DNA of 64,000 nt from an uncultured Candidatus Saccharibacteria bacterium (GCA_964450735.1 CAYVDC010000002.1:64703-128702); one strand, 5' to 3'; counted from the first letter of the stretch, positions 18,629 through 45,406 are shown. Notes: generated by a model not told the origin, from the letters alone. Made by a program: numbers and translations.

Positions 18629-20254
18629 TTAGATTGCTGTTTCTATTTTCGGAGTAAGATCGTATTGCCACAGTATGTCTGTATTTCTATTTATATAGTA
18701 GAGATATTTGTTTGTTGCATCTACATAAAGTCGAACACCATCTGTCGCATCTCCTCCTTCTGTGATAGGGCTAAAGAGGCGCTGATTATCATATACTCCG
18801 GTTGCATCAATAAGCCAAAATGAGTCATTGAACGGTACAGTGCCCTGGTACCAATCATCAGGATATATATGACCAGCTGGAATTGCTGTCGGTACTGCAC
18901 AATAGATGCTTAAGCTATTGGTTGACCAAACGCATTTTTCAGGCAGCGTATTCAATCCAAGGCCTCGAGTATTTTTTGTTTCAATATTCATGATAGCTAG
19001 GGCTGGACCACTTGCCGTGTTTCGGCTGATAAGCAGATATTTGCCGTCCGGGCTTCCGAGTGTCGTCAGTCCAGTGATCGGTCCAGCTACTTTTGTGAAG
19101 TCTCCTTTTGTAATGTCAGTGCTATAAGCAAAACCTGTAGCATATCCAGTCGCTTTGATTGTAAATATGAGCTTATTGGTGGTATTCCATTGGCTGAGCC
19201 AGCCAGAGAATTGTGATGAAAAGACACGTTGTTGATTTTTGCCATCAAGATCGCTTGTAAACCCAAGGAGGCTGTTTGCGGAAGGTAGTAAGAAAAGGAT
19301 ATGTTTGCCATCGGGAGAAATTGAAAGATCGGTTATGTTTTTTGGCATGGAAAGCACTGCTAGCTCTGGGAGTGAGTCTCCCCCGACAATTGGTTCAGTG
19401 ACTTTCCCAATAAGTGTATCAATTGTGGTGTTGTCTGCTTGGAGGGATCGAAGGAATACTGTTTTGCCTTGATCTGCAAAGAACGCTTCATGTACTCGAG
19501 GAATCGTCGTGCTAGAGAGGCGGCGTGTCGCGAGTGTGTCTGCGAATGCGTCAAAAATATTGCTTGTTCCTCGTACCACATATCGAACAACGTCTTTGAG
19601 TACTGTTTCTGGAGTTTCCACGGGGTATGTACAGACAAATCCAGCTTGGATTTTTTTCAGAGTTAATTCGTCCATTACGCCATTCCCTTTGGTTAGATTC
19701 TGTGGTTTGAGAATGTCATCAGTAAAAAGTTCTTGGAATGTCGTAACTGCTTTTGCCGTAGTTGGTCCATAGGTAGTTCCCTCCTTGCCAGGAGAACCTG
19801 CTCCCGTTGCCGCTATTTGCGTCTGTGGGCACTGATTCAAGAACTTTTGGAGCTCTGTTACGTCTGCGCCTTTGTCGCCGGATTTGAGTGTTTTAGAAAA
19901 TGCGTACGATGTTGTTACTGTCACTTGTTTTGGTGCCGGTATTGAGTTCGGATCGACAGGGAATTGTTTTTGGAGTGTAGTATATCCAGTAACTGGGGTC
20001 TCAGATACTTTTCGCAAGCGAGGAGTTGGTCCTGTTACTGGAGGATTCTGGTCAGGATTACTTGGTTCCCCCGTCGAGCCAGTGCCGCCTGGCGTTACTT
20101 GGGGAGTTCCAGGTCCAAATGGAAATAGGTCTCGGATAGTAATCTGTTCGCCAGGGTGATTTTTCTGGGCATTTTTGTAAAGAAAAAAGAACAAAGCAGT
20201 GAATGCTAGAATGATCGCGATGATTATGAGAATGGTGAATGATTTTTTCGACAT
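18629..20254 (-). CDS. Membrane-anchored peptidoglycan-binding beta-propeller protein (TolB-like repeats), last gene of the T4SS-like block
   Basis: N-terminal TM helix (FTILIIIAIILAFTALFFFLY); Pro/Thr-rich linker; a PG_binding_1-like segment (LKSGDKGADVTELQKFLNQ...TTYGPTTAKAVTTFQELF); then repeated SPDGKxxLF-type beta-propeller blades (SISPDGKHILFL, GSPDGKYLLIS). Confidence 0.6.
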   Translation of the reverse strand: MSKKSFTILIIIAIILAFTALFFFLYKNAQKNHPGEQITIRDLFPFGPGTPQVTPGGTGSTGEPSNPDQNPPVTGPTPRLRKVSETPVTGYTTLQKQFPVDPNSIPAPKQVTVTTSYAFSKTLKSGDKGADVTELQKFLNQCPQTQIAATGAGSPGKEGTTYGPTTAKAVTTFQELFTDDILKPQNLTKGNGVMDELTLKKIQAGFVCTYPVETPETVLKDVVRYVVRGTSNIFDAFADTLATRRLSSTTIPRVHEAFFADQGKTVFLRSLQADNTTIDTLIGKVTEPIVGGDSLPELAVLSMPKNITDLSISPDGKHILFLLPSANSLLGFTSDLDGKNQQRVFSSQFSGWLSQWNTTNKLIFTIKATGYATGFAYSTDITKGDFTKVAGPITGLTTLGSPDGKYLLISRNTASGPALAIMNIETKNTRGLGLNTLPEKCVWSTNSLSIYCAVPTAIPAGHIYPDDWYQGTVPFNDSFWLIDATGVYDNQRLFSPITEGGDATDGVRLYVDATNKYLYYINRNTDILWQYDLTPKIETAI

Positions 20255-20258
20255 AGTA

Positions 20259-21320
20259 TTACCATTGTTTTATGTGATAGTGATCAGATTCTTTGACAAA
20301 AACTGTAGATCCAACGGTGTAAAAGCCGGCTTGATTCATTGGGCATCCATCTGAAGAGGTTCCATCAATCCAATGACCACATACTTTTGTTGTTAATCCT
20401 ACGATATATGCACTTAATTCTGGCGTTATGGAAAGGTCTACGATGCCACTGCCAATTTCGTGTGATTTGTGAAGCCAGCATTCAGTACCGCCAGTGACAA
20501 CAATCTTGCAGTTTGCTTGAGCTGCTGCAGAAAGGTTGCCGCAAACCTTGGTTCGCAGGTCGCCCAGCTTGAGAAGAGCTGTATTTCCAAGTTTGTATAC
20601 TGTTGTGCAGTTTGATGCGCCAACAGTAGGACAATTACTTTTATTAACGGTGACTCCAACGCCAAGCAGTCTGCTGCGATAGTCAGCATCATTATTGTTG
20701 ATCACTGGACGGCCTCCCCATGGAGTATCTTTGTCGAGAGCAACACCGTCTGCCGCTGCAGCATTGATGCTGGTTTGTGAGCAGTTAATATTAACAACTA
20801 CTTGCTGTCCATTGATTGTTGCATTTTTAGGTACATACGGTGCGGGCAGATCATCTGCGCCAGTTGTTACAACAGCCAGTCCTTTGGGAGGATCAAGGCG
20901 AATTTCGATGAGTGCTGGGTTAATCGTGTTAAGCAGAAGCCATGATACGAGAGCCAAGATGAGGCCAAATATTGCATTTGAAATCATTTCTTTGCCACCC
21001 TCTTTTTTGGAGATAGCATCTGTTGTCATGTATTGAACACCACCCAAGACAATCATGATAACCCCCAATACTCCGATGATGCTGATGATAACTTTGATCG
21101 CGAGGTTAATATAATCAGCCGCTGTGGTTACCTTCGGGTCGTACTTGTCATAAACTTGTCCTCCCCCCATTGGTAGTGGCTCTAGGAGGCAATACTGTCC
21201 AGAACCAGTTTCTTGGCAATCAGCAGATGCTTTTTGTGGTGCTAGCACTCCAAAACCAAGGCTGGTAGCCAGGAGTATTCCGAAGACTGTAAGCGTTATG
21301 TATGAAGCAAGTTTACGCAT
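20259..21320 (-). CDS. Pilin-like (TrbC/VirB2-type) protein with C-terminal Cys-rich extracellular domain
   Basis: Signal peptide (..LAPQKASA), then two hydrophobic helices flanking a short polar loop (..DYINLAIKVIISIIGVLGVIMIVLGGVQYMTTDAISKKEGGKEMISNAIFGLILALVSWLLLNTINP..), the topology of VirB2/TrbC pilins. This is followed by about 200 aa containing about 10 Cys. Confidence 0.45.
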   Translation of the reverse strand: MRKLASYITLTVFGILLATSLGFGVLAPQKASADCQETGSGQYCLLEPLPMGGGQVYDKYDPKVTTAADYINLAIKVIISIIGVLGVIMIVLGGVQYMTTDAISKKEGGKEMISNAIFGLILALVSWLLLNTINPALIEIRLDPPKGLAVVTTGADDLPAPYVPKNATINGQQVVVNINCSQTSINAAAADGVALDKDTPWGGRPVINNNDADYRSRLLGVGVTVNKSNCPTVGASNCTTVYKLGNTALLKLGDLRTKVCGNLSAAAQANCKIVVTGGTECWLHKSHEIGSGIVDLSITPELSAYIVGLTTKVCGHWIDGTSSDGCPMNQAGFYTVGSTVFVKESDHYHIKQW

Positions 21321-21322
21321 GA

Positions 21323-22336
21323 TTATTTTAGATTAATGGTAATGCTCTTTTCTGCATCAAGGAATAATTTTGAAATATTTTCTATTCGAAGCTTCAGGTT
21401 GGATATTCCTTTTGTTTCTCCACTTTTCAATGTCAGCATGTTTGCGGTCACTGGTGTCTGCACGTCGCTTCCGTTGATTGTCCAGCTATATGCAAGTTGA
21501 GATGAAAGCGGATTTGCTGGAGAGAAGAAGTATGGGATTGCTAAAATTGTCTTTTCGGCCGTCGTGACATCGTAGTTTGTACCTAATTCATGATTCCAGT
21601 CGATGCCATTAATCGGGTCTCGATTGTACATGAGGATTTTGGGTTTGAAGACGTTTACTGTTGCTGTTCCTATCGCAGTAGATCCTGAGGAATTGTCTTG
21701 CCCTATTACTTCGATTTTTTCTGATGGATTCAAATAGTCTTGGGCGAATAAAAGGATGCTCTTGTTGTATCCAGAGTTGTTTGATAGAACGTTGTCATTT
21801 TTTTTCCATCTAAAAACGTATTTAGTTATGTCTAGCGTTCCTGCCCCGTTGTTGATTTGAGGTATGGCTAGTACGCGGATAACCCCTTCTGAGCTTGGGA
21901 GAGCTCTTCCTTTGTAAAAAGGAGGAGTGTATGAGTCAGCACCTTCCCATACTATGTTAATTTCTGATGGATTAAAAACAAAGTTTTTTTGCAGCGTTTC
22001 TCCGCTTGCAAGAAGCATCATGAGGGTAACCGTGGTTCGTTCACCAATCCCTTTGGTGGTAAAGGTGAATTTATATGCTCCTGTTTGCGACAATACTGTC
22101 TTGCCGTCTATTTTCCAAATGAAATAGGCACGAGAAACATTTGTTAGATAGCTTTCTGCTGTAATAGTGACTTCTTGAAAAGGTCCTGGTACTTCTGGGT
22201 TTGCTGAAAAAGAAATATCGTTGTCGTTGATTTGAGCTGCCTGTTCTGGAGATGATTGTGCGAGTGCAATAATAGGAGAAAACGCCACTCCTACGAGAAG
22301 CAGCCCAACGAGCATTAGTGCATGAATGCGAGTCAT
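21323..22336 (-). CDS. Secreted beta-rich hypothetical protein (338 aa)
   Basis: Start moved to the internal ATG, which gives a clean signal peptide MTRIHALMLVGLLLVGVAFSPIIALAQS; the track ORF extends 55 codons upstream into the VirB4 gene. Repetitive Thr/Asn-rich beta-strand pattern. Confidence 0.5.
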   Translation of the reverse strand: MTRIHALMLVGLLLVGVAFSPIIALAQSSPEQAAQINDNDISFSANPEVPGPFQEVTITAESYLTNVSRAYFIWKIDGKTVLSQTGAYKFTFTTKGIGERTTVTLMMLLASGETLQKNFVFNPSEINIVWEGADSYTPPFYKGRALPSSEGVIRVLAIPQINNGAGTLDITKYVFRWKKNDNVLSNNSGYNKSILLFAQDYLNPSEKIEVIGQDNSSGSTAIGTATVNVFKPKILMYNRDPINGIDWNHELGTNYDVTTAEKTILAIPYFFSPANPLSSQLAYSWTINGSDVQTPVTANMLTLKSGETKGISNLKLRIENISKLFLDAEKSITINLK

Positions 22337-22400
22337 ATTCACCTGTATAGTATACCGTGAAAAGAATAAATACAGAACCCTTTTTGTGGGTTTCTCGGCT

Positions 22401-24236
22401 TTATTTTCCCTCGGCTTGTTCGTGTTCTTGTTTAGCTTTTCGGATCGCAAGGATTTGGCTCGGATCCGAGGTAACAATCTGTTCCTCGGTATAGGACGCA
22501 ATAACTTTGATAGCTACGTGCTTAAGACCGGCAAAGAAGATGCCTTCCCCTACGCCTGATTCAAGAAGCAGGTACTTTTCCTCATCCGTCAGATGGAAGA
22601 CCTTTTGAAGGTTATCAATCGAGCTCGGCGACTGTTTGAGGAGGATTTGAATTGAAGAGTTTGAAACGATCGGAACACCGTATGGGCTCTTCATAAAGTC
22701 GTCGATGTTTTGAGTAATTGTTGAAAGTCCGAGATAGTATTTTCGTCCTCGTTTTGCGATGCCGAACAAGAATGACGCAGTATCTTCGGATTTCATCATG
22801 ATCCAGGCCTCGTCCACAACCAAGAGGCGCTTTTTGAGAGTACGGCGCACAGCGGTCCAGATATGGTGAGTAACGATGTACATAGCAACTGGCTTCAAGT
22901 CTTCTTCCATATCTCGGATCGAAAAGACGACAAGGCGCTTGTTGATATCAACGTTGGTTGGCTGGTTCAAGAATGTTGACCACGAACCTTTAGTAAACTT
23001 TTGGAGGCGCTGCAGCAACGACTCAGAGCCTTCCATACCAGCAACCACCATTTCAAAGTCAGAAAGAAGCGGAGGTTCTGCATTTGTAAGGTCACTGTCA
23101 GGAGTGATATCTTTGAGGGCGTAAGTTTCGGTGATCGCGCGGTCGACGATAGCATCTTCTTCTGGGGTCAATCCCCCGAGCATGATGCGGAACAATCCGA
23201 CAAGCTCGATAACGTTCTTGCGGATAACATCGGCGGTTGTCTCGTCTTCGGTTGCAACTGGCAAGTCAAATGGATTGATGTGGTGGTCAGATGAAAGTGA
23301 AATATTAAAATATCGTCCGCCTACCGCTTCAGCTAAATATTCATATTCTCGTTCTGGGTCGATAACGATCACGTCAGTATCGAACATGAGCGTTCGGAGA
23401 ATTTCAAGTTTTGTGGTGAAGGACTTTCCGGAACCAGAGGTTGCAATAGTAACCGAGTTGTAGTTTTCGAGAGAGAATCGATCAAAAATGATCAGTCCTG
23501 AGTTGTGGCGGTTAACTCCGTAGAGAATTCCCTTGTCTGAGGTAAGATCGAATGAAACAAATGGGAAGATGCTCGAAAGAGGCTCGGAATTGAGCTTCTG
23601 GTGGATAGAAAGCATGTCGTTTCCAATTGGAATAACGCTCTTGAAGCCTTCTTCCTGTTGGAAAAGAGCTGGTTTGAGGTACACTAGTTTGGATTCGAGG
23701 ATAGATTTGATCTCATTCTCTGTTTTGAAAAGCTCCTGTTCGTCATCGGCGTAGATAGTGATATAAAGACCGACATCGAACATTTTCTGCTGAGCCTGCA
23801 TCAGGCTGTTGCGGAGGTTTTCCAAGTCATTAACCGCGGTATCAAGCATGGGGTCTCGAACGAGACCCTTCCCCTCGCGCACATTGATCTGGCTCTGCAC
23901 CTCGGCTACTTTTTTCTGGAAGTCGCGAAGAATCTTTTCTGTTTCGATTGGGTGTATGAAAATGGAAACATCAAAAATTTTATCGAGGTTAATGACGGGA
24001 GAGAACCAGTTGTCAGTTAAAAATCGTGGGTAGGAAATAACGAAAAATGTTCGAGCAACCTTTGATCCAAGATTGATCTGTTTCGGGTCTATCTTGAGCG
24101 CTGAAGGCGCAATGATGTCGCGAAATTCAAGCGTCGCAGCCTCGTAAATTTCAGACGGCAAAACAGGCATAATGCCGCTTGCCGTCTGCGTCATGCCCGA
24201 GTTCTTTTTTCCAAATAATGCGTCGAAGATTCCCAT
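22401..24236 (-). CDS. virB4: VirB4/TraC/TrbE-family type IV secretion ATPase, middle and ATPase domains
   Basis: Walker A TIATSGSGKSFTTK; the VirB4-characteristic DPEREYEY (DPxGEY-like) motif right after it; Walker B LLVVDEAWIMM; 611 aa with about 260 aa before Walker A (..VISYPRFLTDNWFSP..SIFIHPIE.. resembles the VirB4 middle region). Confidence 0.75.
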   Translation of the reverse strand: MGIFDALFGKKNSGMTQTASGIMPVLPSEIYEAATLEFRDIIAPSALKIDPKQINLGSKVARTFFVISYPRFLTDNWFSPVINLDKIFDVSIFIHPIETEKILRDFQKKVAEVQSQINVREGKGLVRDPMLDTAVNDLENLRNSLMQAQQKMFDVGLYITIYADDEQELFKTENEIKSILESKLVYLKPALFQQEEGFKSVIPIGNDMLSIHQKLNSEPLSSIFPFVSFDLTSDKGILYGVNRHNSGLIIFDRFSLENYNSVTIATSGSGKSFTTKLEILRTLMFDTDVIVIDPEREYEYLAEAVGGRYFNISLSSDHHINPFDLPVATEDETTADVIRKNVIELVGLFRIMLGGLTPEEDAIVDRAITETYALKDITPDSDLTNAEPPLLSDFEMVVAGMEGSESLLQRLQKFTKGSWSTFLNQPTNVDINKRLVVFSIRDMEEDLKPVAMYIVTHHIWTAVRRTLKKRLLVVDEAWIMMKSEDTASFLFGIAKRGRKYYLGLSTITQNIDDFMKSPYGVPIVSNSSIQILLKQSPSSIDNLQKVFHLTDEEKYLLLESGVGEGIFFAGLKHVAIKVIASYTEEQIVTSDPSQILAIRKAKQEHEQAEGK

Positions 24237-24237
24237 G

Positions 24238-24885
24238 TTATTGTTGCAACTTTATTGAACTTGATATTTCGCCTGGGTTGAAGACCTTGTAGTACAGCTC
24301 GATCGCTTCTTCTGTTCCAACCTGCACTGATCGTACGCCAACTCGAGTAAGTCCTTGCTGTACGACGCCGATGCGTTGGTCGAGCTGCGTGCGATGCTCC
24401 TCAAAGCTGATGAGCGCATCGCTCTTTGCTCCCTGACTTGGGGCTTTGGTTCCGCCAAACAATGATTTGCTCAGAGTTCCAGCAGATCCAAGCGGCGAAG
24501 AGCTATATGGGACTACGACAATAAATGTCTTTGTCATGATGGCAACTTCATTGGTGAAATTTTCTATGAAGTGCGTGTACTCTTCTGTCTGAATCTTGAG
24601 CAGTGGTTCGAGCTGCGCCTTTTTGCGTTCTTTGAGAAGTGCGATGTATGGGCGGATATCAAGACGGCGAGACTGTACAACGATCTGTACTGAGAAGTCG
24701 AGCGAGTTCAAAAAGTTTTGGAACTGCATGATCGTTCCCTGCTGTTCGTCTGCAGACTTGAGTGAAAGGTTAACTGACGAAGCAAGCAAAAGAGCGCGCA
24801 TGCTGCCATCATTCAAAATAATGATGCCGTCGCGCACCTCCCTGATCGGAACGAACTCTTGAGTTGCTTTTGCGTTGAGTGCCAT
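24238..24885 (-). CDS. VirB4 N-terminal domain-like protein (separate ORF abutting the ATPase ORF)
   Basis: 215 aa, ..FVPIREVRDGIIILNDGSMRALLLASSVNLSLKSADEQQGTIMQFQNFLNSLDFSVQIVVQSRRLDI.. resembles the N-terminal region of Gram-positive-type VirB4 proteins. Its stop is separated by a single nucleotide from the ATG of the 611-aa ORF, in a different frame. Confidence 0.5.
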   Translation of the reverse strand: MALNAKATQEFVPIREVRDGIIILNDGSMRALLLASSVNLSLKSADEQQGTIMQFQNFLNSLDFSVQIVVQSRRLDIRPYIALLKERKKAQLEPLLKIQTEEYTHFIENFTNEVAIMTKTFIVVVPYSSSPLGSAGTLSKSLFGGTKAPSQGAKSDALISFEEHRTQLDQRIGVVQQGLTRVGVRSVQVGTEEAIELYYKVFNPGEISSSIKLQQ

Positions 24886-24914
24886 CTGGTACTTAGTATA
24901 TCATAAACCCATTG

Positions 24915-25337
24915 TTAGCTCTTCTTGTTCTTGTCCATATCAAGCACATCGAGGCTCCACGAAAGATCCTTGAGCTTAGAATTGGAGAGTTTGGGTATAT
25001 AGTTGAAATTCGCCAAGCTGTCCTCTTCTTTCTTTTCCTCGGGCTTCTTTTTCTTGGCTTGTTTTTGCTTCCATACGTACAGCTTTGCCCCAATATAGTA
25101 ATTGAATGCTGATTCCATTATAGAAATGAACGGGCGATTGTTGACCTTGTAGAATGTGAGTGCGAGAGCAAGCGTTGCGATAGGAATAATGAGCGGAATC
25201 GCAATATAGAATGGCAAGAGTTTCCAGAGCACAAAAGATCCTCCTGCTCCTCCAAGGAGATAGATGAATTGCTTGAACGTGAACGGTCCAAAGATTTTAT
25301 CCTCCACATCGATAAACTGAGGAACTTGAAATTGCAT
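24915..25337 (-). CDS. VirB3/PrgI-like small membrane protein
   Basis: 140 aa with two adjacent TM helices (..FIYLLGGAGGSFVLWKLLPFYIAIPLIIPIATLALALTFY..) then a basic tail. It sits directly upstream of the VirB4 ORFs, the VirB3-VirB4 (PrgI-PrgJ) arrangement. Confidence 0.45.
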   Translation of the reverse strand: MQFQVPQFIDVEDKIFGPFTFKQFIYLLGGAGGSFVLWKLLPFYIAIPLIIPIATLALALTFYKVNNRPFISIMESAFNYYIGAKLYVWKQKQAKKKKPEEKKEEDSLANFNYIPKLSNSKLKDLSWSLDVLDMDKNKKS

Positions 25338-26223: not shown

Positions 26224-26262
26224 ATAGAATGTATTACTTGATAATTATATCATGTGAATTGA

Positions 26263-32427: not shown

Positions 32428-32451
32428 ACGATGGTGTAAGTATAACAATCT

Positions 32452-36116: not shown

Positions 36117-36125
36117 ACCATAAAC

Positions 36126-36156
36126 AAAAAACACTCCCGAATCGGAAGTGTTTTTT
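36126..36156 (-). terminator. Intrinsic terminator downstream of the 937-aa gene
   Basis: Stem aaaaaacactcccga/tcggaagtgtttttt (one mismatch) with A/T runs on both sides (approximate coordinates). Confidence 0.5.
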
Positions 36157-36169
36157 GGTTGAGCTAGCC

Positions 36170-38983
36170 TTATCTAAAGAATCCGTGTCTACTGAGCCAG
36201 TTTTGACGATCAACGTTTACCTGGGCCCAAGCGTCTTGTGATTCGATCTTGGCTCGTCCGAGGTATTCTGCAACGCTTTCACCATTTCGCATTGGAACTG
36301 ATCTTTGCATGTGTCTCAAAGTCTCATAGAGAGGTCTTGCAGGATCATTTGCATGCTGCGCAAGGTATTCTTTGTCGATGTAGCGTACGTGACGATTCAA
36401 AATTCGGTCTACTCGTTCATTATCAAGCGGCTGAAGTGTTGGATCATGAGGCTGAGGCGCGTGATGAGTTGGATCATTGTAGTATTCGTCATCCCATTCA
36501 GCATCATATGGACCTGGTTTGCCTGGAGCATTGTCTGCAACTGATTGGCTTCCATGTTCCTGGTGGTGTTTGTACCAACGCTTGGTGTGGCCTTCTGCAT
36601 CATGGGTCTTGTACCAATGTTTGCTGTGATGTTTGCCGTCATGCCAATTATCGCGAGGATCATTCGGATCAGCTGGAGGCGGAGTAGGAGCAGGAGTATC
36701 ATGTGAATGATCGATGTGGCTCTGGAACTGGTTGTGATTCAATCCGTTATTGCCCATAAATCCGTTGGCATTAGTTTTGCCAAAGTTTGGGTCTTGCGGA
36801 TCATGAGTAGTGATGCCACTTCCAAAGTTTGGATTCTGAGGAGCAGCAGGAGCTGCTGCTGGAGCTTGTTTATAGTCGACATAGCGTTCATTGGTCTCAG
36901 CACCGTACGTTGCATTTCCTTTAGCATCAGTAGTTATAAGATTGTGGTCCTCGGCTGCACCACTAGCATTTCGCAAGCTGTGCGATACAACATTTCCATG
37001 ATCATCAAAGGTAATACCCGATCCCTCGAGCATGTTCAAGCTTTTACCAGTGCTATCTATGCCGCCAAATTCTTTTGCGAGCTGAAGTGGAGTCTTATCC
37101 AAAATATGCTGGTAACCGGAAGGAATTTTGCTTGCGTCAATAAGTTTTCCGTCTGCCCCAGTGTAAGCAGCTTTAATGTTGTCCTGCACATGTTTCCAAG
37201 TCGCGATAGCTCCATGGCTGTCGTACTTTACTTCGGCGAGTGGCTTGTATATATGTGTATCAACTGGTGCTGGAGGTGGAGTCGGTGCAGCAGGAGGTGT
37301 ATTCTTTATTGGATCTGGCGCATCTGTCTTTGCAGCGTGCTTATCGTCGCCATCTCCCATAAGTTTGTGATACCATTTTGAAACAAAACCTTGGTTTTCT
37401 GGTGTGCCACCCTTTACGTTGTCATGTGAATGATTAACATCATGATTTCCAGCGCCATGTTCTGCTGCATTACTGCCGCCCAAACCAAACCATCCGTTAT
37501 GTCCCACGGCATTGAGTCCAGCACTTGTTGCGCCCATGGTTACGCCTCGGATGACAAAGTCTGCGATAAGGTGTTTGAGTCGAGCGTTCTGTTCAGCGTC
37601 CATTCTTTTTTGAACAGCTGCTTCAAGTGCTTCGAATGACTTCTGATCCATCATTCCCTCATTAAACATTCCTACCTTCTCTCTCACCATTCCTTGTACT
37701 TCCTGAGCTCCTTTTTCTTGGATTTTCTTTACTGATTTTTCTGCGCTCGTGAAAAAGTTTTTAGCGGATACGGCAAGTTGTCCAGCAGCTCCACCTGCGA
37801 TGATTCGAGCTGCCCGGGTTGCGCCATATCCAAGCACGCCAATTGTAACTCCCTTTGCCGCAACCGCCGCGAAGCCCATAGCGAGAACCGTTGAAGTAGC
37901 CATTCGAACTGGTTTCGGGATTTTTGTGTAGTATTCCGCAGCAGTCCTTCCAATGCTTCGAATGCGTTCAGGAACAATCGGTTCGATGAGATCTTTTTTT
38001 GCTTGGAGTTCAGTATAGATCATGATCTCAATCTCTGCAGGTGTTGAACCGCCTCTAATCATTTCGTTTACTTTTTCGCCGAGGAATTTCTGGTATACCT
38101 TCTCAGCATCAACATTTTTGTCGATGAGCTTTTTCCCCTCTTCCGTATCAGGTGCGAAGAATAAGCTCTCCGCTTTTGTTCTTCCAAATATTTTGCGCTC
38201 TACTTTTGCTTGCCAGCCCATCTGTTTTTCGAGGTTTCCGTATGCTTCAAAATACGCTGTCTTTGCTTCTTCAAGGTTCTGCGCTTCTACCCAGTTTCCG
38301 TTTCCTACTTGTGCAGGTGCGCCGGTGGGATTTTGTTGTGGTCCGCCATTATTTGCTGCACCCTGGGCTCCTCCAGATGTATTTTGTTGAGTTCCAGAAG
38401 TTGTCTTAGTCTTCTTTTTTGGGCCTCCTGATGTAGTTTTTTTCGAACCCTTCTTGTTGGTCGTATCTTCTGGGTCGGCTGCTCCCCCCGCTCCACCAGG
38501 AGCAGTTGCGTCAGGATCATCTACTGGTTGATCTCTCAAAGCTTCCATGTGCGCCAAATTCTCCTCGCTGTAAGGCGCCTCGTATTTTTCTCCAACACCT
38601 TTTTTTGCTTCAGGTGTAGCGGTTGCCTCATTTGATGAAGCTTCTGCATCCTCGTCTTTTTCTTCTGTTCCTTTGCCGTGCTTCTTCTCGAAATCCTCGG
38701 CTTCTTGTTGGGTTTCTGCTGCTGATTTTTGTAACTCAGCTTCTGCAGCTTCGGTTTTGGTATCAACCTTTGTTGCGATTTTTGGGTTTTTCTTTGCTTG
38801 GGCTTTTTTCTTGGTTTCCTTTCCGATCTTTTCTATATTCGCCCCAAGGGTAACTATCATATTATTGAAAGCCTCCTTTGCCTTGAATTTTACCGCTTCT
38901 TTTCTAAATCGATTAAGCTCAGGTCCGTCTTTGGCCGAAGCGATCTTTTCATTAATATTGTCTTTTGTGATTTTTTCTGACAT
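36170..38983 (-). CDS. Large membrane protein with His-rich and Pro-rich extracytoplasmic C-terminus (937 aa), unknown function
   Basis: ATG start. About 330 aa N-terminal K/E-rich region with a GGxxTSGGxKKKTKTT stretch. Two Gly/Ala-rich hydrophobic segments (..TSTVLAMGFAAVAAKGVTIGVLGYGATRAARIIAGGAAGQLAV.., ..IRGVTMGATSAGLNAVGHNGWFGLGG..). His clusters (HDVNHSHDNV, HIDHSHDTP, HHSKHWYKTHDAEGHTKRWYKHHQEHG). Confidence 0.55.
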   Translation of the reverse strand: MSEKITKDNINEKIASAKDGPELNRFRKEAVKFKAKEAFNNMIVTLGANIEKIGKETKKKAQAKKNPKIATKVDTKTEAAEAELQKSAAETQQEAEDFEKKHGKGTEEKDEDAEASSNEATATPEAKKGVGEKYEAPYSEENLAHMEALRDQPVDDPDATAPGGAGGAADPEDTTNKKGSKKTTSGGPKKKTKTTSGTQQNTSGGAQGAANNGGPQQNPTGAPAQVGNGNWVEAQNLEEAKTAYFEAYGNLEKQMGWQAKVERKIFGRTKAESLFFAPDTEEGKKLIDKNVDAEKVYQKFLGEKVNEMIRGGSTPAEIEIMIYTELQAKKDLIEPIVPERIRSIGRTAAEYYTKIPKPVRMATSTVLAMGFAAVAAKGVTIGVLGYGATRAARIIAGGAAGQLAVSAKNFFTSAEKSVKKIQEKGAQEVQGMVREKVGMFNEGMMDQKSFEALEAAVQKRMDAEQNARLKHLIADFVIRGVTMGATSAGLNAVGHNGWFGLGGSNAAEHGAGNHDVNHSHDNVKGGTPENQGFVSKWYHKLMGDGDDKHAAKTDAPDPIKNTPPAAPTPPPAPVDTHIYKPLAEVKYDSHGAIATWKHVQDNIKAAYTGADGKLIDASKIPSGYQHILDKTPLQLAKEFGGIDSTGKSLNMLEGSGITFDDHGNVVSHSLRNASGAAEDHNLITTDAKGNATYGAETNERYVDYKQAPAAAPAAPQNPNFGSGITTHDPQDPNFGKTNANGFMGNNGLNHNQFQSHIDHSHDTPAPTPPPADPNDPRDNWHDGKHHSKHWYKTHDAEGHTKRWYKHHQEHGSQSVADNAPGKPGPYDAEWDDEYYNDPTHHAPQPHDPTLQPLDNERVDRILNRHVRYIDKEYLAQHANDPARPLYETLRHMQRSVPMRNGESVAEYLGRAKIESQDAWAQVNVDRQNWLSRHGFFR

Positions 38984-39002
38984 GAAGAGGTTGGATAGTA
39001 GG

Positions 39003-39167: not shown

Positions 39168-39411
39168 GCATATAAGTATATACCAAAGACCCCGTTTACG
39201 CCTAGCTGTCTATGGGTTTTCCTGGGTATTGTGATAATTATAGCCCATTTGAAACCTATTGACAAGACTATCCAAAAGTGCTATACTACAGCTAACATTC
39301 ATTGATATGTGTTTATGTGGAGAAAAGTCTGCCGACATCGTTGTGGGCCTGCTTTTCTCTCATCATAAACATTCATAAATAAATATTCACGAAAACTAAA
39401 ACCGATCTACT

Positions 39412-40071
39412 ATGACAAAGTTAACTTCCCTTTTCGCCCTACTGTTTGTACTTTTTACTGTTAACGCTTCAGCCCAAAATCCGGGCAATAGCTTGCAGTT
39501 CACAAACCAAACACCGCCGGTGGTGAACAAACCGGGTACTACCACATCCGATCCAATGCTGCAGCAAAGGTATGCACAACAAGCACAGCAGGCCATGATG
39601 GCATATATGATGGATTCAATAAGCAAAGCGCTTAGCCATGATATTGATGCCAAGGTAAATGCTAAAGTAACTGCTATTGTTGGCGCCAAGCTTAAAAAAT
39701 CCGAAGCGCAGCAAAAGAAAATAATTTCGGGTATGAGAAGTGAGCTTACCTCTACGCGCAATGATTTTGCGTATAAATTAAAACAAAACAATCAGGCTCT
39801 GGTAGATATGAACGCTTCGGTTGATGCCAAGAAAGCAGATATTGAGAAAACTCTTACCACCTTTCAGGAAACTGCTAAGGGTATAGACAAAAAACTTGAT
39901 TCTTTTAATTGGAAACTATACGGTACTTGGGGTGGAGTTGCTATTCTGTTTATAATTTTGATTTTGGCTGGATTTAAGCTGAACACCAGAATTAATTTAG
40001 CAAGCACAAAGTATGACGCTAATATGAATAAATTAGTTGCCGACTACAACGCACGTCACAACCCAAGCTAA
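39412..40071 (+). CDS. Secreted/C-terminally anchored hypothetical protein (219 aa), lone plus-strand gene inside the minus-strand block
   Basis: Signal peptide MTKLTSLFALLFVLFTVNASAQN; Q/A/K-rich helical body; C-terminal TM helix (WGGVAILFIILILAGF). The gene appears more AT-rich than its neighbours by eye. Confidence 0.55.
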   Translation: MTKLTSLFALLFVLFTVNASAQNPGNSLQFTNQTPPVVNKPGTTTSDPMLQQRYAQQAQQAMMAYMMDSISKALSHDIDAKVNAKVTAIVGAKLKKSEAQQKKIISGMRSELTSTRNDFAYKLKQNNQALVDMNASVDAKKADIEKTLTTFQETAKGIDKKLDSFNWKLYGTWGGVAILFIILILAGFKLNTRINLASTKYDANMNKLVADYNARHNPS

Positions 40072-40096
40072 TACAAACAATAATTAGATAAAATAC

Positions 40097-40128
40097 AAAG
40101 GCCAGCAATTTATTGCAGGCCTTTTTTC
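40097..40128. terminator. Bidirectional intrinsic terminator (219-aa gene versus the 1120-aa gene)
   Basis: Hairpin aaaggcc-a-gcaat / attgc-a-ggcc followed by a T6 run, with an A/T-run on the opposite strand (approximate coordinates). Confidence 0.5.
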
Positions 40129-40142
40129 TTGCACCTATTTTG

Positions 40143-43100
40143 TTATGGTCGCAACACTCGTGGGAGCTTGTCTCCAAATCTATCTTTCATAGCTTTGTTA
40201 ACCGCTTCATCAATGCGACGTTCTTCTTCTGATACGATTCTTTCTCGTCGCTCAACATCACGCACGAACTTTAGTCTGCCGATATTCTTGTCTACGAAAC
40301 CTTCGTTCGAGACATAGCTCAGGTCGCCCTCCTCAATGTGGGTTGAGAATAGCGGGTCATCTTTTCTTGGGAAATTAATTCCTCCCTCAACTCTTATGCC
40401 CGTCCCGTCAGGAGTAACCATTTCATATTTAAACACAGAACCATATTGATCAAACCCTCGTAGTTTTAGGTTTCTGAATTTGAGACTTTCAGTTTCTGAC
40501 GATGCAAGCGTGTCCTTTAATACAGTAGAGATGAATTCAGTCATCTGTTCGGCAGTCACGGCTTCTGTTTCAAGATCACCCGCCTTTTTGTTTTCAGTTG
40601 TGTTCGCTTCAGAAGCTAAAAGATTTTCTGGTGTAACGTCTTTTGGTTTCTTTACGGGAGCAACGAGATTGTTAACTTCGTCCTGATTTGTTCGATACAG
40701 TAATCCTTCTGGTGGAGTAAGCGGCTCTTCTTTTTTTATTTTTTCAGCGATCTCTTGAAGACGTTCCTTGAGGGATTTAACAGGTGCTTCTGGCTGATTG
40801 GGCTCTTCAGTATTTTCTGGACCATCATCAGCTTTCTTTCCTGGAGCTAAATTTTCAGGAAGCGGCTCGGTTACTTCTTCTACTACTTCTTCTTTCTTCT
40901 CTTCCTCTTTTACGACAGGTTCTTCTTCCACTTCAACGACTGGAGCTTCTTGTGTCGCGGCTGCTGCTGGAGCTTTTGCTTTTGCATCTTTGATGATGTC
41001 GGACAAATGATTCTTATGGAATTCTGCCCACGTAAGTTCCTTTGGCTGCTCGCCCTTTGCCCCGTTCTGCAGGTAGTACGCCATATTGTAGAGATTGAAG
41101 TGGCGAAGAGACCATTCTTTCACTTCTTCAAGCGTGTTGCCTTTTGAGCCAAGCTTTTCAGTAAGGTCGTTGTATTCAACCATTACTTCTGCGTGCTTTG
41201 CTTCAATTTCCGCTGCGGTTAGTTCAAGTTTCTTGCCGAGGAGGTCTTTCGGCTTTTCATTTGTTCCAGTTCGCATCTTGCTGCGGTCAAGAATGCTCCA
41301 GTATGCTTTTGGATTATTTTTTATCTTTTCAAGTCCGGCGAGCTTTGAGGCCCAGGCGTTTTTTTCTACAGTAAGTACTTCAATTTTCTTTTCGAGATTC
41401 TTGAGTTTATCAGGAGTGTCGAAGCTGGTGTCTTTCTTTTTCTTTTCAATTGCCGCGAGATATGCGTCAATGTTTGCATTAATACGAGTGATGTTCGTTT
41501 CAATCATGTCTCGCACCCCAGCAATCTGGTTCTCATATGTCATGAGCACTCGGCTCTGAGAGTAGAGAATATCATTGAGTTCGTATTCTACTGTTCGTTC
41601 AGCTGCTGCAAACGATGTTGGAATGCTGATACCGATGAGGTTGGCCAACTGCTGTTCGGTCAATCCAATTTTTGAATTTGGATTTTCTTTGTCAGCTTGG
41701 CTGATTGCCATTCCTCCGCGAACAGGACGAATATTTGGATCAAATGCTTTGACATCCTCTATCCATGGACGGAGCTCGTCGCCTGGCTTGGAGAAGAAGT
41801 ATGATTTTGTGTCAGGCTGGTAGCGGCCGTATGCGTCATATCCCATATTGTATGCGGCATGGCTTCCGTGCGGGATTCTCCACTGGGCTTCATTGACTGA
41901 GTTTGGCTCGTAGAAAAGAACTCTTCCAAATCTGTTTGAGTATACTTTTCTTCCCTCTGCGATTGCTTTAGCTTCGTATCGTTCGACGTTGTAAATGCTT
42001 TTCTCTACGCGATTCTTTTCATTTTTGACAAGTTCGCTGATAGCTATTTTGCCATCTGGAGATTTCTTGATGTTTGGTCGATCTGGTCGTGTATCGGCAA
42101 TTCGGATTTCCATCTGTTCATCAGTAAATGGTTCGTACGGGTTTTTTCCTGCTTTGAAAAATTCAACAATGATTTCAGTCGGCAAAACATCTCGGAGTCC
42201 GAGGATTGTTTTCGGATATTCATTGCGGAACTGCTCCTTGCCTCCGCGAGGGTAAGACATGTTGTCGAAGTCAGTGACGAACTCCATGTACTTTTGCATC
42301 CATGGTTCGATGGTTTCGAGTTTACCAGAACGGTGGAGCACGCCCATCAAGATTTCAGCTGCAGATGTTTTGATTGAACGTCCTTCGAAGTGGTGATCGA
42401 ACTCCGCACGGCCTTCGGTGATAGTGGCGATTTCTTCTGATCCTCCCACATCGATCAAGATGCCGCGCTCGAATGTGCCGCCTTTTTCTATGGCAATGAT
42501 CTCTCTTCCCTCCAAGAGTCCTAATGAATCAAGAGTGTACAGTGCTGCTTTGGAGTCAGTATCGGGATTTTTGTGCGTTACAATTGGAACTGTCTTGTCT
42601 TCGAGAAGTTTGTTGACGATCTCGAGCATCTTTGCGTCAAGGATACGATTGAGTTCCCTGTTTGTAGGGCTCTGCTGGATCAAAGATTCTCTGATCTCTG
42701 CAATAGACATCTTGCTTCGCTTCTCAGCTTCGGCAATCTTTGCTTCTTTTGTTGTCAGTGTTTTGAACTTCCAATCAGGAATCTTGTTTTTGAGGTATTG
42801 CTCGGCAGTCGCAGCGTCTTGGGAGAGCTGGTACTCTTTGGAACCAACACGTTCATTGGTGGCTTTAGCGAGCAAATCTTCGAGTTCTGCCTCAGTTTTG
42901 CCCTTGAGTTTTGCTTCGCTGTGCCCTGCTGCCTTGAGTTCAGCAATGCGAAGTTCCTTGGCAAATTCTGCCGCTGCCTGTTTGTTGATCTTTACTTTTT
43001 CGTAGGATAGTTTTTCTTCAGTCGCTTCTGCTTTCTTTTCTTCTTCTCCGATCAGCTCAAATTCTCCCTCCGCAATATCGTAATTATCAGGATTAATTTT

Positions 43101-43505
43101 TTGCTTTTTTTGTGGTGTGTGAGTAACTTTTGCTTGGTTCGCCGACGCCGCTTTTTTCTTCCTTGAAGCTTCCGCTGCTTCTTTTTCGAGTCTCTCTTTT
43201 TTGGCGAGCAGTTCCTCATGTTCCTGCTTCATTGCATCGAACATGATCTTCATTCCACGTTTTGCTCGGTCAACTCCTTTTGCGTCTTTACTGGTTTCAG
43301 AAATTTTCTTTAGGAATGTGTATGCTGCGGCCTGAGGGTCGCTTTCTTCGGCTTCCAAAAAATTCTTGTACGCTTCTGAGTTTTTTCCAAATAATTCCTC
43401 GGCAATTTTTTTGTCAGCAGTCTGCTCTTTAAACCACTTCATTACTTCCGCCGCTGCGTCGTTTTTTTGCTCAGGTCCTGTTTGGTTGGGTTTTTTTTCT
43501 GCCAT
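40143..43505 (-). CDS. Giant soluble coiled-coil protein with internal DHH-family phosphoesterase-like motifs (1120 aa)
   Basis: No TM segment; extremely K/E-rich. Residues about 300-390 read ..TVPIVTHKNPDTDSKAALYTLDSLGLL..ILIDVGG..AEFDHHFEG.., which matches DHH motifs I (HxNPDxDS), II (D) and III (DHH). No clear GGGH (DHHA1) motif was recognised afterwards. Confidence 0.6.
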   Translation of the reverse strand: MAEKKPNQTGPEQKNDAAAEVMKWFKEQTADKKIAEELFGKNSEAYKNFLEAEESDPQAAAYTFLKKISETSKDAKGVDRAKRGMKIMFDAMKQEHEELLAKKERLEKEAAEASRKKKAASANQAKVTHTPQKKQKINPDNYDIAEGEFELIGEEEKKAEATEEKLSYEKVKINKQAAAEFAKELRIAELKAAGHSEAKLKGKTEAELEDLLAKATNERVGSKEYQLSQDAATAEQYLKNKIPDWKFKTLTTKEAKIAEAEKRSKMSIAEIRESLIQQSPTNRELNRILDAKMLEIVNKLLEDKTVPIVTHKNPDTDSKAALYTLDSLGLLEGREIIAIEKGGTFERGILIDVGGSEEIATITEGRAEFDHHFEGRSIKTSAAEILMGVLHRSGKLETIEPWMQKYMEFVTDFDNMSYPRGGKEQFRNEYPKTILGLRDVLPTEIIVEFFKAGKNPYEPFTDEQMEIRIADTRPDRPNIKKSPDGKIAISELVKNEKNRVEKSIYNVERYEAKAIAEGRKVYSNRFGRVLFYEPNSVNEAQWRIPHGSHAAYNMGYDAYGRYQPDTKSYFFSKPGDELRPWIEDVKAFDPNIRPVRGGMAISQADKENPNSKIGLTEQQLANLIGISIPTSFAAAERTVEYELNDILYSQSRVLMTYENQIAGVRDMIETNITRINANIDAYLAAIEKKKKDTSFDTPDKLKNLEKKIEVLTVEKNAWASKLAGLEKIKNNPKAYWSILDRSKMRTGTNEKPKDLLGKKLELTAAEIEAKHAEVMVEYNDLTEKLGSKGNTLEEVKEWSLRHFNLYNMAYYLQNGAKGEQPKELTWAEFHKNHLSDIIKDAKAKAPAAAATQEAPVVEVEEEPVVKEEEKKEEVVEEVTEPLPENLAPGKKADDGPENTEEPNQPEAPVKSLKERLQEIAEKIKKEEPLTPPEGLLYRTNQDEVNNLVAPVKKPKDVTPENLLASEANTTENKKAGDLETEAVTAEQMTEFISTVLKDTLASSETESLKFRNLKLRGFDQYGSVFKYEMVTPDGTGIRVEGGINFPRKDDPLFSTHIEEGDLSYVSNEGFVDKNIGRLKFVRDVERRERIVSEEERRIDEAVNKAMKDRFGDKLPRVLRP

Positions 43506-43517
43506 ATAAATGTAATA

Positions 43518-45065
43518 TTATTTTACCACACGTTCGAAATGTTCAAAAATCTTGTTGCGGCGAGCGATCTTCTTTTGGAGCTCCTCAAGTTCTTTTTCTA
43601 TTTCTTCTAGTTTTCTTTCTTTCTGTTCTTCAGGCTCGTTTGATTCTTCTATAGTTTCTTTTACTTCTTCTTTTTCCTCTACTTGCTCCTTTGGTGTTTC
43701 CGGTTCACTTGAATTCTCGGTCACTTCTTTTTTAGTTTGCTCCGCAGGTGTTTCTGGAATTGCTGGAAGATTTCGTTGCTGATCACCCTCAGCTTCTTCT
43801 TTGGCTGCTGCGTTAAGCTCTGCAACATCTTCTACACCGAGGTTTGTTTCAGGAATTTCAACCGTAGGAGTTTCAGGGATTTCTTCTGTTTCCTCGATTG
43901 GTGTTTCTTCAATTGCTGGAGCTTCTTGTTCTATTGGGGTGAACATGTAAGAGTCACCTTCCTCATCTGTCATAAGTACTGAATCAGTGTATGAATCCCA
44001 TTCTTTGAGGACGATTGCATCTTGCTCGCCATTCTCACTTTTTATTGCGATCTTGTATTTTTGCTCTTTTGGCAATGAAAGGATTCCCGTGACTGTCCAC
44101 TTCTCATTGTTGATATCAGTGTATGACTGTCCTCTTTCTAGTTTGAAAGCCGCATCTCCTGTGGTAAGCGTAAGAGAACTGATAGTGTATCGCTCTGGAG
44201 ATTGGTCAACGAGGTTTGCGGATTCAGGATCCATCACTCCGCTCACACTTCGAATAAGTGTCATGCGGTCGCCAAGGGTTCGCAAAACTTCTGAATTATT
44301 TTTATTTTCCCAGTCGCGGATATATACACGCTCATGTTCACCAAAAGCGTTTTCTACTTCAACAACAACCGAGCCATTATGCTCATCGATCTTGCCGATT
44401 TTCCACGGAGTATTTTTGCCATCCAGGAATGTTTGTCCGACATCGATGCTGATGATTCCATGAGAATGTTCAAGATCAATTCCTTCATGTGTTGCATGAG
44501 CAGGAACTGACAACCATAATCCGATTTCCTTTTTTCCGTATATGACTGTGATATGGCCTTCTTCCGAAGATGTAATTTTACATCCAGTAAGATATTTCCC
44601 TTGTTCGTCTACGACGTCGATTGTTCGAGGACCGTTATTGATCTTCTTGACCATAATCGGTTCATCTTTCTCGTTATAGAGTATGGTACCGATTTTTATA
44701 CCTAAATCTTGGATAGTCCCCATCTTCTCTTCTTGTTGTGGAGATTTGGTTTTAGGAACGAATGGAACTTTTTCATCGCTAATGTCTGTCGGTATATTCA
44801 TGAGCTTGTCTAGATCAGCTGAAAGCTTTTTGATTACCGCCTCGGTTGTATAGTCCTTGTATTGATACAAGAGGGATTCGATCTTTGCAGTATTTTTCTG
44901 CTTAACAAGTTTAGTAAGATCTCCTAGTAAGACAGTGTTAAATAATTCGGCTGTATTTTTGTTCTGAATAGACGAAATAGCTTTTCCAACTTCCAGGGAA
45001 ACATCTATGTCTTTTTTGGTTTCTACCGTATCGTTTTTTTGAACGATTGGGGTTTTTTCTGGCAT
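43518..45065 (-). CDS. Acidic hypothetical protein (515 aa)
   Basis: ATG start; no TM segment. The C-terminal 150 aa are E/P/T-rich (..EETPIEETEEIPETPTVEIPET..) ending in a K/E coiled coil. Co-oriented 12 nt upstream of the 1120-aa gene. Confidence 0.55.
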   Translation of the reverse strand: MPEKTPIVQKNDTVETKKDIDVSLEVGKAISSIQNKNTAELFNTVLLGDLTKLVKQKNTAKIESLLYQYKDYTTEAVIKKLSADLDKLMNIPTDISDEKVPFVPKTKSPQQEEKMGTIQDLGIKIGTILYNEKDEPIMVKKINNGPRTIDVVDEQGKYLTGCKITSSEEGHITVIYGKKEIGLWLSVPAHATHEGIDLEHSHGIISIDVGQTFLDGKNTPWKIGKIDEHNGSVVVEVENAFGEHERVYIRDWENKNNSEVLRTLGDRMTLIRSVSGVMDPESANLVDQSPERYTISSLTLTTGDAAFKLERGQSYTDINNEKWTVTGILSLPKEQKYKIAIKSENGEQDAIVLKEWDSYTDSVLMTDEEGDSYMFTPIEQEAPAIEETPIEETEEIPETPTVEIPETNLGVEDVAELNAAAKEEAEGDQQRNLPAIPETPAEQTKKEVTENSSEPETPKEQVEEKEEVKETIEESNEPEEQKERKLEEIEKELEELQKKIARRNKIFEHFERVVK

Positions 45066-45100
45066 ATGTTAATTATACAATATGTATATAAAAAGTCAAA

Positions 45101-45406
45101 TTACCCTACCTGGCTCATGATTGCGTCTCGTTCTGCTTTGAGTCCTGCTGCTTCTTCGGCAACAATGGCCTCAAAGTTAGGTACTTCGCTGTTCATGAAA
45201 GCCAACAATTCATCAGGTGCAGTGTTTGTTGAGAGGAGAGATTCGAGCTTGTCCTGAGCCTGTTCGCTCATGCCTGGGGCAACGCGCAAGATTACTGCCT
45301 GGAATACCAAGCCACCGATTTTCTCAACAAGCGCATCCTGTTCTTCGGGAGTTGCGTTTTCGAGGTTGTAGGTTTTGATGAACATGTCGCGAAGTGTGGT
45401 ATCCAT
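45101..45406 (-). CDS. Small helical hypothetical protein (101 aa)
   Basis: MDTTLRDMFIKTYNLENATPEEQDALVEKIGGLVFQAVILRV..; first gene of the 36.2-45.4 kb co-oriented block; preceded by a 300-nt intergenic region. Confidence 0.45.
   Translation of the reverse strand: MDTTLRDMFIKTYNLENATPEEQDALVEKIGGLVFQAVILRVAPGMSEQAQDKLESLLSTNTAPDELLAFMNSEVPNFEAIVAEEAAGLKAERDAIMSQVG

Follow-up and report, generated by a model that had tools for sequence, protein, structure and literature searches.

Patescibacteria carry type IV secretion systems (T4SSs) whose VirB4 ATPases, in a survey of 3,035 genomes, form a monophyletic clade nested in MPF_FATA, with TrsD, PrgI/VirB3, VirB6 and VirB2-like pilins abundant near virB4 (Quinonero-Coronel et al. 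2025, PMC12102498). Relaxases are rare in these genomes, VirD4 homologues are found in most of them but far from virB4, and in class ABY1 comF, recG and radA lie next to the T4SS (PMC12102498). In Paceibacteria the system lies near dnaA, dnaN, rnpA, ksgA and rpmH, and M23/LysM VirB1-like proteins are associated with virB4 (PMC12102498). The T4SS and pilins of Southlakia are essential by transposon sequencing, and protein export or another non-DNA role has been argued for them (Wang et al. 2023, PMC10633639); the distant type IV coupling protein (T4CP) of Southlakia is, unlike the T4SS, non-essential (PMC12857230, PMC12102498). In Saccharibacteria, comEC deletion mutants are viable but no longer competent, whereas the T4SS is essential (2025 FEMS review, PMC12857230). 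Here we analyze a stretch of 64,000 nucleotides deposited under the name of an uncultured Candidatus Saccharibacteria bacterium (GCA_964450735.1 CAYVDC010000002.1:64703-128702; the whole stretch is called the window), in which a preliminary description, made from the sequence alone, had placed a T4SS-like apparatus at 18629-45406. Our reading, to which we assign a probability of about 0.8, is that this region holds a chromosomal, origin-proximal Patescibacteria T4SS, derived from monoderm MPF_FATA machinery and most likely used for host contact and/or protein translocation, not for conjugation.

The locus is a further member of the published Patescibacteria T4SS and no new kind of system; the preliminary statement that its architecture matches no described one falls, since the same system appears in PMC10633639, PMC12102498 and PMC12857230. 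As in the Patescibacteria-clade T4SSs (PMC12102498), including that of Southlakia epibionticum (SEML1_0006-0019, PMC10633639), an MPF_FATA-type VirB4 is accompanied by TrsD-like, PrgI/VirB3 and VirB6-like proteins and by a VirB2-like pilin gene next to virB4, and the genes are chromosomal, near dnaA/dnaN/rnpA/ksgA, without a nearby relaxase or T4CP and with the M23/LysM hydrolase seen in Paceibacteria. Three differences stand out. Arrays of short pilins, divergent ones in Saccharimonadia, have been reported from Saccharimonadia and Microgenomatia, whereas the lineage of the window has a single extended pilin, of 353 aa here and of 313-774 aa in relatives. Four proteins of the locus, p957, p337, p292 and p541 (proteins are named by their length in residues), are neither named nor given a role in PMC12102498 and PMC10633639. 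Lastly, essentiality has been demonstrated for the T4SS of Saccharibacteria only.

Gene order and conservation

Relatives of the VirB4 protein were collected by searching a single genome for each species, which returned 580 loci. The best 80 are 77-92% identical to the window protein and belong to metagenome-assembled genomes of Patescibacteria titled Paceibacteria, Nomurabacteria, Minisyncoccia or, from one submitter, Saccharibacteria; the genome under study is a member of the Paceibacteria ('Ca. Nomurabacteria'-type). Among plasmid VirB4s, those that come closest belong to monoderms and are 28-36% identical. These identity values are strongly suggestive of a placement of this VirB4 in the monophyletic Patescibacteria clade.

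Synteny was compared in 44 genome loci with full 10-kb flanks, in the additional locus L081, and in ~40 metagenome loci anchored on uvrD. All 44 genome loci have one order, uvrD-rsmA-p292-p957-p1070-p272-PrgI-p215-VirB4-p337-pilin-p541 / jag-yidC / dnaA-dnaN, in agreement with the earlier proposal of a chromosomally fixed, non-conjugative T4SS-like apparatus in a genome of the candidate phyla radiation. In total, more than 100 related loci support the conserved order. The uvrD-anchored loci extend this order to more distant lineages and show on the far side comM and a LysM/M23 peptidase gene, followed by a variable slot, which the peptidase gene adjoins in nearly all of them. Among species-level relatives, median amino-acid identity is 78% for VirB4 and 61% for p215, as compared with 64% for DnaA, 53% for DnaN and 49% for YidC.

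Within the window, open reading frames (ORFs) follow each other on the minus strand from 45406 to 18629 almost without gaps, as had been described, in the transcription order p101, p515, p1120, [p219, plus strand], p937, uvrD, rsmA, p292, p957, p1070, p272, p140, p215, p611, p337, p353, p541; gaps within the part from uvrD to p541 measure 1-99 bp. The block is nevertheless broken by the plus-strand gene at 39412-40071 and consists of two units, not one. Synteny and a terminator-like hairpin divide the 27 kb into a conserved unit (18629-36134) and a variable slot (36170-45406). The conserved machine proper occupies 18629-33330, with uvrD and rsmA co-directional up to 36134, and thus accounts for ~15-17 kb of the 27 kb claimed. 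In blastn against the closest relative, L082, the breakpoint falls at window position 36156, coinciding with the hairpin. The features of the conserved unit are as follows.

18580..18622, both strands: perfect inverted repeat of 21 nt that resembles a terminator on either strand; lies between jag (+) and p541 (-) and closes the T4SS unit
18629..20254, minus: p541, transmembrane (TM) anchor, peptidoglycan-binding-like domain and beta-propeller; the unit's conserved last gene (43/44 loci)
20259..21320, minus: p353, extended VirB2-like pilin; PF18895 (T4SS_pilin) 32.4 bits, cut-off 26.6
21323..22336, minus: p337, N-terminal TM segment and three ~105-aa repeats (W-x-x-N/D-G); directly after VirB4 (43/44 loci)
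22401..24236, minus: p611, VirB4-family ATPase whose N-terminal ~180 residues are missing; NCBIfam NF045971, Pfam and PDB matches
24238..24885, minus: p215, detached VirB4 N-terminal domain (TrsD/TraC-like); NCBIfam and BLASTP matches (44/44 loci)
24915..25337, minus: p140, PrgI/VirB3-like small membrane protein; PF12666 37.4 bits, cut-off 27 (44/44 loci)
25405..26223, minus: p272, no predicted TM segment, small N-terminal domain and Pro/Ala/Ser-rich tail; position conserved
26263..29475, minus: p1070, extended VirB6-like polytopic membrane protein, by indirect homology and an AlphaFold2 (AF2) model (44/44 loci)
29575..32448, minus: p957, secreted or anchored large protein of an unannotated family; directly upstream of the VirB6-like gene, conserved
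32452..33330, minus: p292, N-terminal TM segment and ~250-aa outside domain; first T4SS-specific gene, conserved
33382..34173, minus: rsmA/ksgA, 16S rRNA dimethyltransferase; PF00398 4e-50 and synteny; immediately upstream of the T4SS genes, conserved
34179..36134, minus: uvrD/pcrA-type helicase; PF00580 9e-84, PF13361 and synteny; heads the co-directional unit
36125..36157, minus: terminator-like hairpin of 15 pairs; sharp border between conserved and variable DNA

Components of the apparatus

The ATPase p611 scores 391 bits against NCBIfam NF045971 (VirB4-like conjugal transfer ATPase, conju_CD1110; cut-off 325), matches Pfam P-loop_TraG (97 bits, 1.3e-27) and PDB 4ag5 (E 6e-40), and has a Walker A (SGSGKS) and a Walker B (LLVVDEA) motif readable in its translation. 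Its alignment to NF045971 spans profile positions 182-733 of 752. The protein p215, encoded just upstream, matches VirB4_plasma (the mycoplasma VirB4 model) at positions 102-217 (E 1.2e-8) and the CD1110 model at positions 2-104, is collinear in BLASTP with residues 23-197 of the full-length VirB4 (797 aa) that C. botulinum plasmid pCDC3875 encodes (E 7e-9), and gives a weak match to NCBIfam TrsD (E 1.3e-3, 18.5 bits, cut-off 200); its homologue in L081 carries PF26593 (TraC-like). Because the p611 match begins at profile position 182 while p215 matches N-terminal positions of VirB4, VirB4 is split into two genes, a TrsD-like N-domain (p215) and the ATPase (p611).

The pilin p353 is built of a signal peptide, two TM helices (T4SS_pilin at residues 69-133) and a Cys-rich C-terminal extension of 220 aa, and also matches the NCBIfam pilin-like model Mbov_0395 (E 4.7e-4). 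A single pilin-domain gene, of 313-774 aa, occupies the corresponding position in 56 of 62 relatives, and tblastn matches of the gene in more distant relatives are mostly limited to a short stretch, which suggests a conserved pilin module followed by a C-terminal extension that may vary. At the end of the unit, p541 combines an N-terminal TM segment with a PG_binding_1 match just below the cut-off (22 bits, cut-off 23) and with propeller matches (PD40 21.6 bits, cut-off 20.9; TolB propeller E 1.8e-6; propeller-blade designs 8prj E 7.6e-8).

The assignment of p1070 is less direct. The protein comprises a signal or anchor segment, an outside domain of ~260 aa, a core of 6-7 TM segments (residues ~290-640) and a C-terminal part with a coiled-coil/charged region, a Gly-zipper segment and a His-rich tail, and Pfam and PDB sequence searches with p1070 and with 45 homologues from related loci gave no direct hit to VirB6. 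P0057 and P0083, two homologues from the database (E 1e-25 and 3e-12 to p1070), exceed the gathering score of Pfam TrbL/VirB6 (PF04610; 26.4 and 30.4, respectively, with the threshold at 25.9); for residues 290-640 the BLASTP match to P0057 reaches E 1e-39. The match to NCBIfam MMCAP2_0566 has E 0.02, and hhalign of the p1070 family profile with the single references CD1112 VirB6 and A. fabrum VirB6 gave weak results. An AF2 model of residues 270-700, built from 88 sequences, is confident (predicted local distance difference test, pLDDT, 85.5; predicted template-modeling score 0.76), and a Foldseek search with the core model against 350,542 PDB chains placed TrwI/VirB6 of R388 in the top three positions with probability 0.99, although at E of just 0.014 and template-modeling scores of 0.25-0.35. 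Taken together, the transitive and structural links point indirectly to a VirB6-like protein.

Much of the preliminary list of components thus stood: the 611-aa VirB4-family ATPase, the 353-aa VirB2-type pilin and the membrane-anchored peptidoglycan-binding propeller protein were all recovered. The 140-aa protein does belong to the PrgI/VirB3 family but is not encoded immediately upstream of VirB4, since the 215-aa gene intervenes, and the VirB6/TrbL-like nature of the 1070-aa protein is suggested indirectly, by transitive homologues and by the predicted fold, not by direct sequence matches.

The remaining conserved proteins gave fewer leads. The start of p337 was set at the ATG at 22336, a longer TTG ORF being one that would overlap virB4; its three repeats, seen in the family alignment, are probably Ig/PKD-like (PKD_3 25.5 bits, below the cut-off of 26.3), and a PDB profile search of the family returned nothing meaningful. 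The same search of the p292 family was equally uninformative; p292 is seen wherever the flank extends far enough, and its relatives carry a DxDxDG-type motif in the family alignment. For p272, detected in 33 of the 44 loci at ~31% identity, neither Pfam nor NCBIfam gave a match.

The family of p957 is very large. With a 19-sequence profile it comprises 5,174 cluster representatives (50% identity) at E<=1e-3 among 1.84 billion proteins, its N-terminal ~390 positions being the most widely matched; a chimeric query of p957, p337 and p292 retrieved homologues of p957 only. Nothing matching p957 was found in Pfam, NCBIfam or PDB, nor anything meaningful in a PDB profile search with its N-terminus, and an AF2 model from the 19-sequence alignment was poor (pLDDT 55), with Foldseek returning generic helical bundles (best E 0.13). 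In the p957 gene, a 12-nt tandem repeat in three copies (31466-31513) specifies a portion of a Gly/Thr/Ser linker, which separates two conserved segments that contain Cys. A role as an SLT/VirB1 analogue was considered and rejected, as hhalign shows no similarity to the SLT protein.

One lead on p957 comes from its N-terminus. DUF4141, a 53-position Pfam model that we take to represent the CTnDOT TraI family, is matched by 6 of 32 N-termini of the p957 family, the best and only one to reach the cut-off of 30 scoring 30.5 bits; p957 of the window gives no match. The matched region takes in the last part of the signal peptide together with a motif of the kind AQWVVTDPGN, and many members of the family begin after cleavage in a VirB5/TraI-type motif, A-x-A|Q-[FW]-V-V-x-D-P, which is degenerate in the window protein (AHA|GWPVTDV). 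When the family consensus was aligned by hhalign with the start of A. fabrum VirB5, ARA|QFVVSDPATEAE, the E-value was 0.0037 and the probability 9%, and the similarity is confined to ~30 residues. DUF4141 proteins adjoin traJ/traG in Bacteroides conjugative transposons (PMC10434189), and TraI of CTnDOT has been reported to be homologous to VirB5 (PMC4027160). On the basis of this short motif and of the position upstream of the VirB6-like gene, p957 could tentatively be considered a VirB5-like stalk or tip subunit, an identification that we regard as doubtful.

Beyond the Patescibacteria, the closest likeness is to the monoderm CD1110/CTn2-pCF10-type T4SSs (MPF_FATA), such as that of C. botulinum pCDC3875, with a VirB4 33% identical, the order VirB6-like-PrgI-x-VirB4 and no outer-membrane core (VirB7/9/10). 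In contrast to the window, with its split VirB4, its pilin and its extended 1070-aa VirB6-like protein but no T4CP, relaxase or SLT protein, pCDC3875 has VirD4 (CD1115), a MOBP relaxase, a 957-aa SLT transglycosylase and a single 797-aa VirB4, and lacks a pilin. A small separate protein related to the VirB4 N-terminus is also encoded just upstream of the ATPase in pGO1/pIP501 (TrsD/TraD), although p215 matches the VirB4 N-terminus better than the TrsD model. With the stalk module of the diderm VirB and R388 systems (VirB2, VirB5, VirB6) the locus shares the T4SS_pilin signature, a p1070 core model that best matches TrwI/VirB6 and, in many members of the p957 family, a mature N-terminus with a motif like that of VirB5/TraI; it differs in that the window has no VirB7-11 and in that p1070 and p957 exceed VirB6 and VirB5 three- to fourfold in length. 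Extended VirB6 proteins with a polytopic core and large hydrophilic extensions, like p1070, include the VirB6 paralogues of Rickettsiales and monoderm TcpH/PrgH/ConG (PMC12857230). Homology of the p1070 extensions (an FN3-like outside domain in some relatives, the coiled coil, the Gly-zipper and the His-rich tail) to those of the proteins just named is unsupported.

The variable slot and flanking genes

Upstream of the hairpin, the slot and its neighbors hold the following features.

36170..38983, minus: p937, recurrent slot family, 38 members by single linkage; 34% identity to L081 703-3420
39412..40071, plus: p219, signal peptide, coiled coil and C-terminal TM segment; breaks co-orientation
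40143..43505, minus: p1120, large protein, no predicted TM segment; rare slot family, 8 members
43518..45065, minus: p515, acidic, no predicted TM segment; found in the closest relative only
45101..45406, minus: p101, small DUF5663-like protein (PF18908 E 0.005); 20-member family
45709..46923, plus: LysM and M23 peptidase (PF01551 3e-29, LysM 5e-22); conserved neighbor
47017..48552, plus: comM (Mg-chelatase-like); conserved neighbor of the M23/LysM gene

In 46 loci for which the interval between the M23 gene and uvrD could be compared, about half have an interval of just 0.35-0.75 kb, and the others hold one to five large co-oriented ORFs. Alignment of the window to L082 by blastn gives one high-scoring segment pair of 5.8 kb and 78% identity that runs downwards from 36156, and above that position patches of 67-69%. 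The slot proteins are 35-43% identical to their counterparts in this closest relative, compared with 78-96% for core and housekeeping proteins. Because about half of the relatives have an empty slot and the breakpoint lies at the hairpin, p1070 and p957 belong to the core and p937 and p1120 to a dispensable slot; the preliminary view that giant proteins are woven into the apparatus applies to the former pair and not to the latter, nor to p515. The slot proteins p937, p1120, p515, p101 and p219 are weakly constrained, and their membership in the machine is unsupported. Their large divergence is not taken as a sign of diversifying selection, since in the comparison with L082 synonymous sites are already close to saturated: for UvrD, an amino-acid identity of 96% goes with a nucleotide identity of 78%.

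Individually, p937 has a charged N-terminal region, a TM/Gly-rich segment, a conserved C-terminal domain and His-rich stretches, and a relationship as a paralogue of the p1070 C-terminus was rejected, the two not being homologous. The plus-strand p219 is a real gene, because a positional counterpart of like build, without detectable sequence similarity, lies in L082 at 4776-5558 (-), between the homologues of p1120 and p937. In p1120, residues ~310-380 show by eye, in 6 of the 8 family members, the order HxxPDxD(S/T) ... ID(V/T)xG ... DHH, which resembles DHH phosphoesterases; Pfam on sub-sequences, a PDB profile search and a homologue search with the core gave no support for this. Members of the p101 family usually lie directly upstream of uvrD in relatives. 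Two non-coding stretches, 39003-39425 (upstream of p937) and 40089-40132 (just downstream of p1120), belong to the small part of the slot that can still be aligned with L082 (69% and 85% identity) and may be regulatory or terminator elements.

The presence of rsmA-uvrD inside the block and of comM beside it, as first described, was borne out; comM is here inverted relative to almost all uvrD-anchored relatives. The LysM/M23 peptidase is a candidate for cell-wall remodeling, analogous to VirB1. On the other side of the block lie the housekeeping genes dnaN and dnaA (12045-14753), a UbiA-family gene, and yidC and jag (17362-18582), and beyond comM come PNPase and then a XerC/D-like tyrosine recombinase (55636-56643), 10 kb from the block. 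The UbiA-family prenyltransferase, of 558 aa (14827-16503), sits between dnaA and rnpA in the window, and a homologue is found between rsmA and the first T4SS gene in the distant relatives L146, L149, L154, L158 and L161. The T4SS unit lies on the strand opposite to yidC-jag, with transcription directed towards dnaA (window 12000-36134), and the cumulative GC-skew minimum is at ~10-12 kb; if oriC lies by dnaA/dnaN, ~17.5 kb of conserved origin-side genes would be head-on to replication. Sizeable minus-strand ORFs outside the block, at 2048-4555 (835 aa), 48978-49952 (324 aa) and 54703-55686 (327 aa), gave no match in a Pfam search.

In keeping with what had been noted before, no T4CP, VirB11 or relaxase was found in any scanned ORF of the 64-kb window, and the window yielded no tRNA, no integrase boundaries and no flanking direct repeats. 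There is likewise no Rfam family at gathering score and no GC anomaly.

Use of the apparatus and its rivals

By analogy with solved T4SSs, assembly, pilus formation and substrate may be pictured as follows. VirB4 and its detached N-domain would dock on the membrane via PrgI/VirB3, and VirB4/VirB3, using ATP, would pull the extended pilin out of the membrane onto the VirB6-like platform, giving a short pilus or conduit through the cell wall. The M23/LysM peptidase would open the wall, and the peptidoglycan-binding propeller protein p541 might brace the structure. The most likely use, by an analogy that includes the essentiality data from another class, would be contact with a host, protein translocation or both, as part of life as an epibiont. 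Vertical inheritance, together with the lack of a coupling protein or relaxase in the window, makes a non-conjugative use the most likely one.

Several points weigh against this reading. The genome could have a T4CP gene outside the window, as the distant VirD4 homologues of other Patescibacteria illustrate (PMC12102498), and the functional role proposed for the T4SS of Paceibacteria is carried over from another class. No VirB8-like protein was identified, and five conserved genes, p292, p957, p272, p337 and p541, are without an assigned role. That the T4SS genes are co-transcribed with uvrD-rsmA we infer from short gaps and consensus hairpins.

A machine for DNA transfer, whether for import like archaeal Ced or for export with a coupling protein and relaxase encoded elsewhere, and with comM and uvrD linked to it, appears unlikely. 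The conserved vicinity of comM and uvrD, a weak, partial match of p611 to CedB (38 bits, cut-off 700, E 5.8e-10), the comF/recG/radA genes beside the T4SS of ABY1 and the distant VirD4 homologues of most genomes (PMC12102498) speak for it; but the orientation of comM varies, uvrD-rsmA are housekeeping genes, no T4CP or relaxase gene was detected in the window, and a search of NCBIfam with the ten proteins of 18629-33330 gave no CedA-like match. Moreover, Southlakia requires its T4SS but neither comEC nor the distant T4CP (PMC12857230, PMC12102498), and the dispensability of comEC in Saccharibacteria, set against their essential T4SS (PMC12857230), weakens DNA uptake, which the preliminary description had listed beside secretion and attachment, as a leading role. 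Slightly less probable still is that all 27 kb encode one apparatus with p937, p1120, p515 and p101 as structural or accessory subunits or effectors. The slot genes are indeed adjacent and co-oriented, many relatives have members of the p937 and p101 families in their slot, and large weakly constrained proteins beside secretion systems are often substrates. Against this, about half of the uvrD-anchored loci combine a full core with an empty slot, the hairpin and a plus-strand gene divide the slot genes from the core, the slot proteins lag far behind core and housekeeping proteins in identity to the closest relative, and p1120 and p515 lack both a predicted TM segment and an apparent signal peptide.

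That the block is an integrative conjugative element in decay, recently stripped of its mobility genes, is highly improbable, and a remnant of this kind was rejected on synteny. Although VirB4 is of the conjugative MPF_FATA/CD1110 type and a tyrosine recombinase is encoded 10 kb away, the position adjacent to dnaA is the same in hundreds of species-level genomes, VirB4 is more conserved than DnaA, and neither a GC anomaly nor a tRNA or repeats were found; the recombinase itself is XerC/D-like and lies beyond unrelated housekeeping genes. A vertically inherited T4SS for host contact and/or protein translocation is thus the reading that we prefer.

The Patescibacteria T4SS is the sole T4SS reported to be essential for the growth of its bearer, and the locus provides a class-wide gene list for Paceibacteria, in which twelve conserved co-directional genes are set off from a dispensable variable slot. 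The list reveals the split of VirB4 and marks p292, p957, p272, p337 and p541 as the conserved unannotated envelope proteins most worth study, the p957 family first among them, being both large and encoded next to the VirB6-like protein. The lead on this family is what is new here. If p957 were indeed VirB5-like, these monoderm T4SSs would carry a complete VirB2-VirB5-VirB6 pilus-assembly module, as diderm systems do, and the variable C-terminal extension of the single pilin and the variable C-terminal domains of p957 would be host-recognition surfaces.

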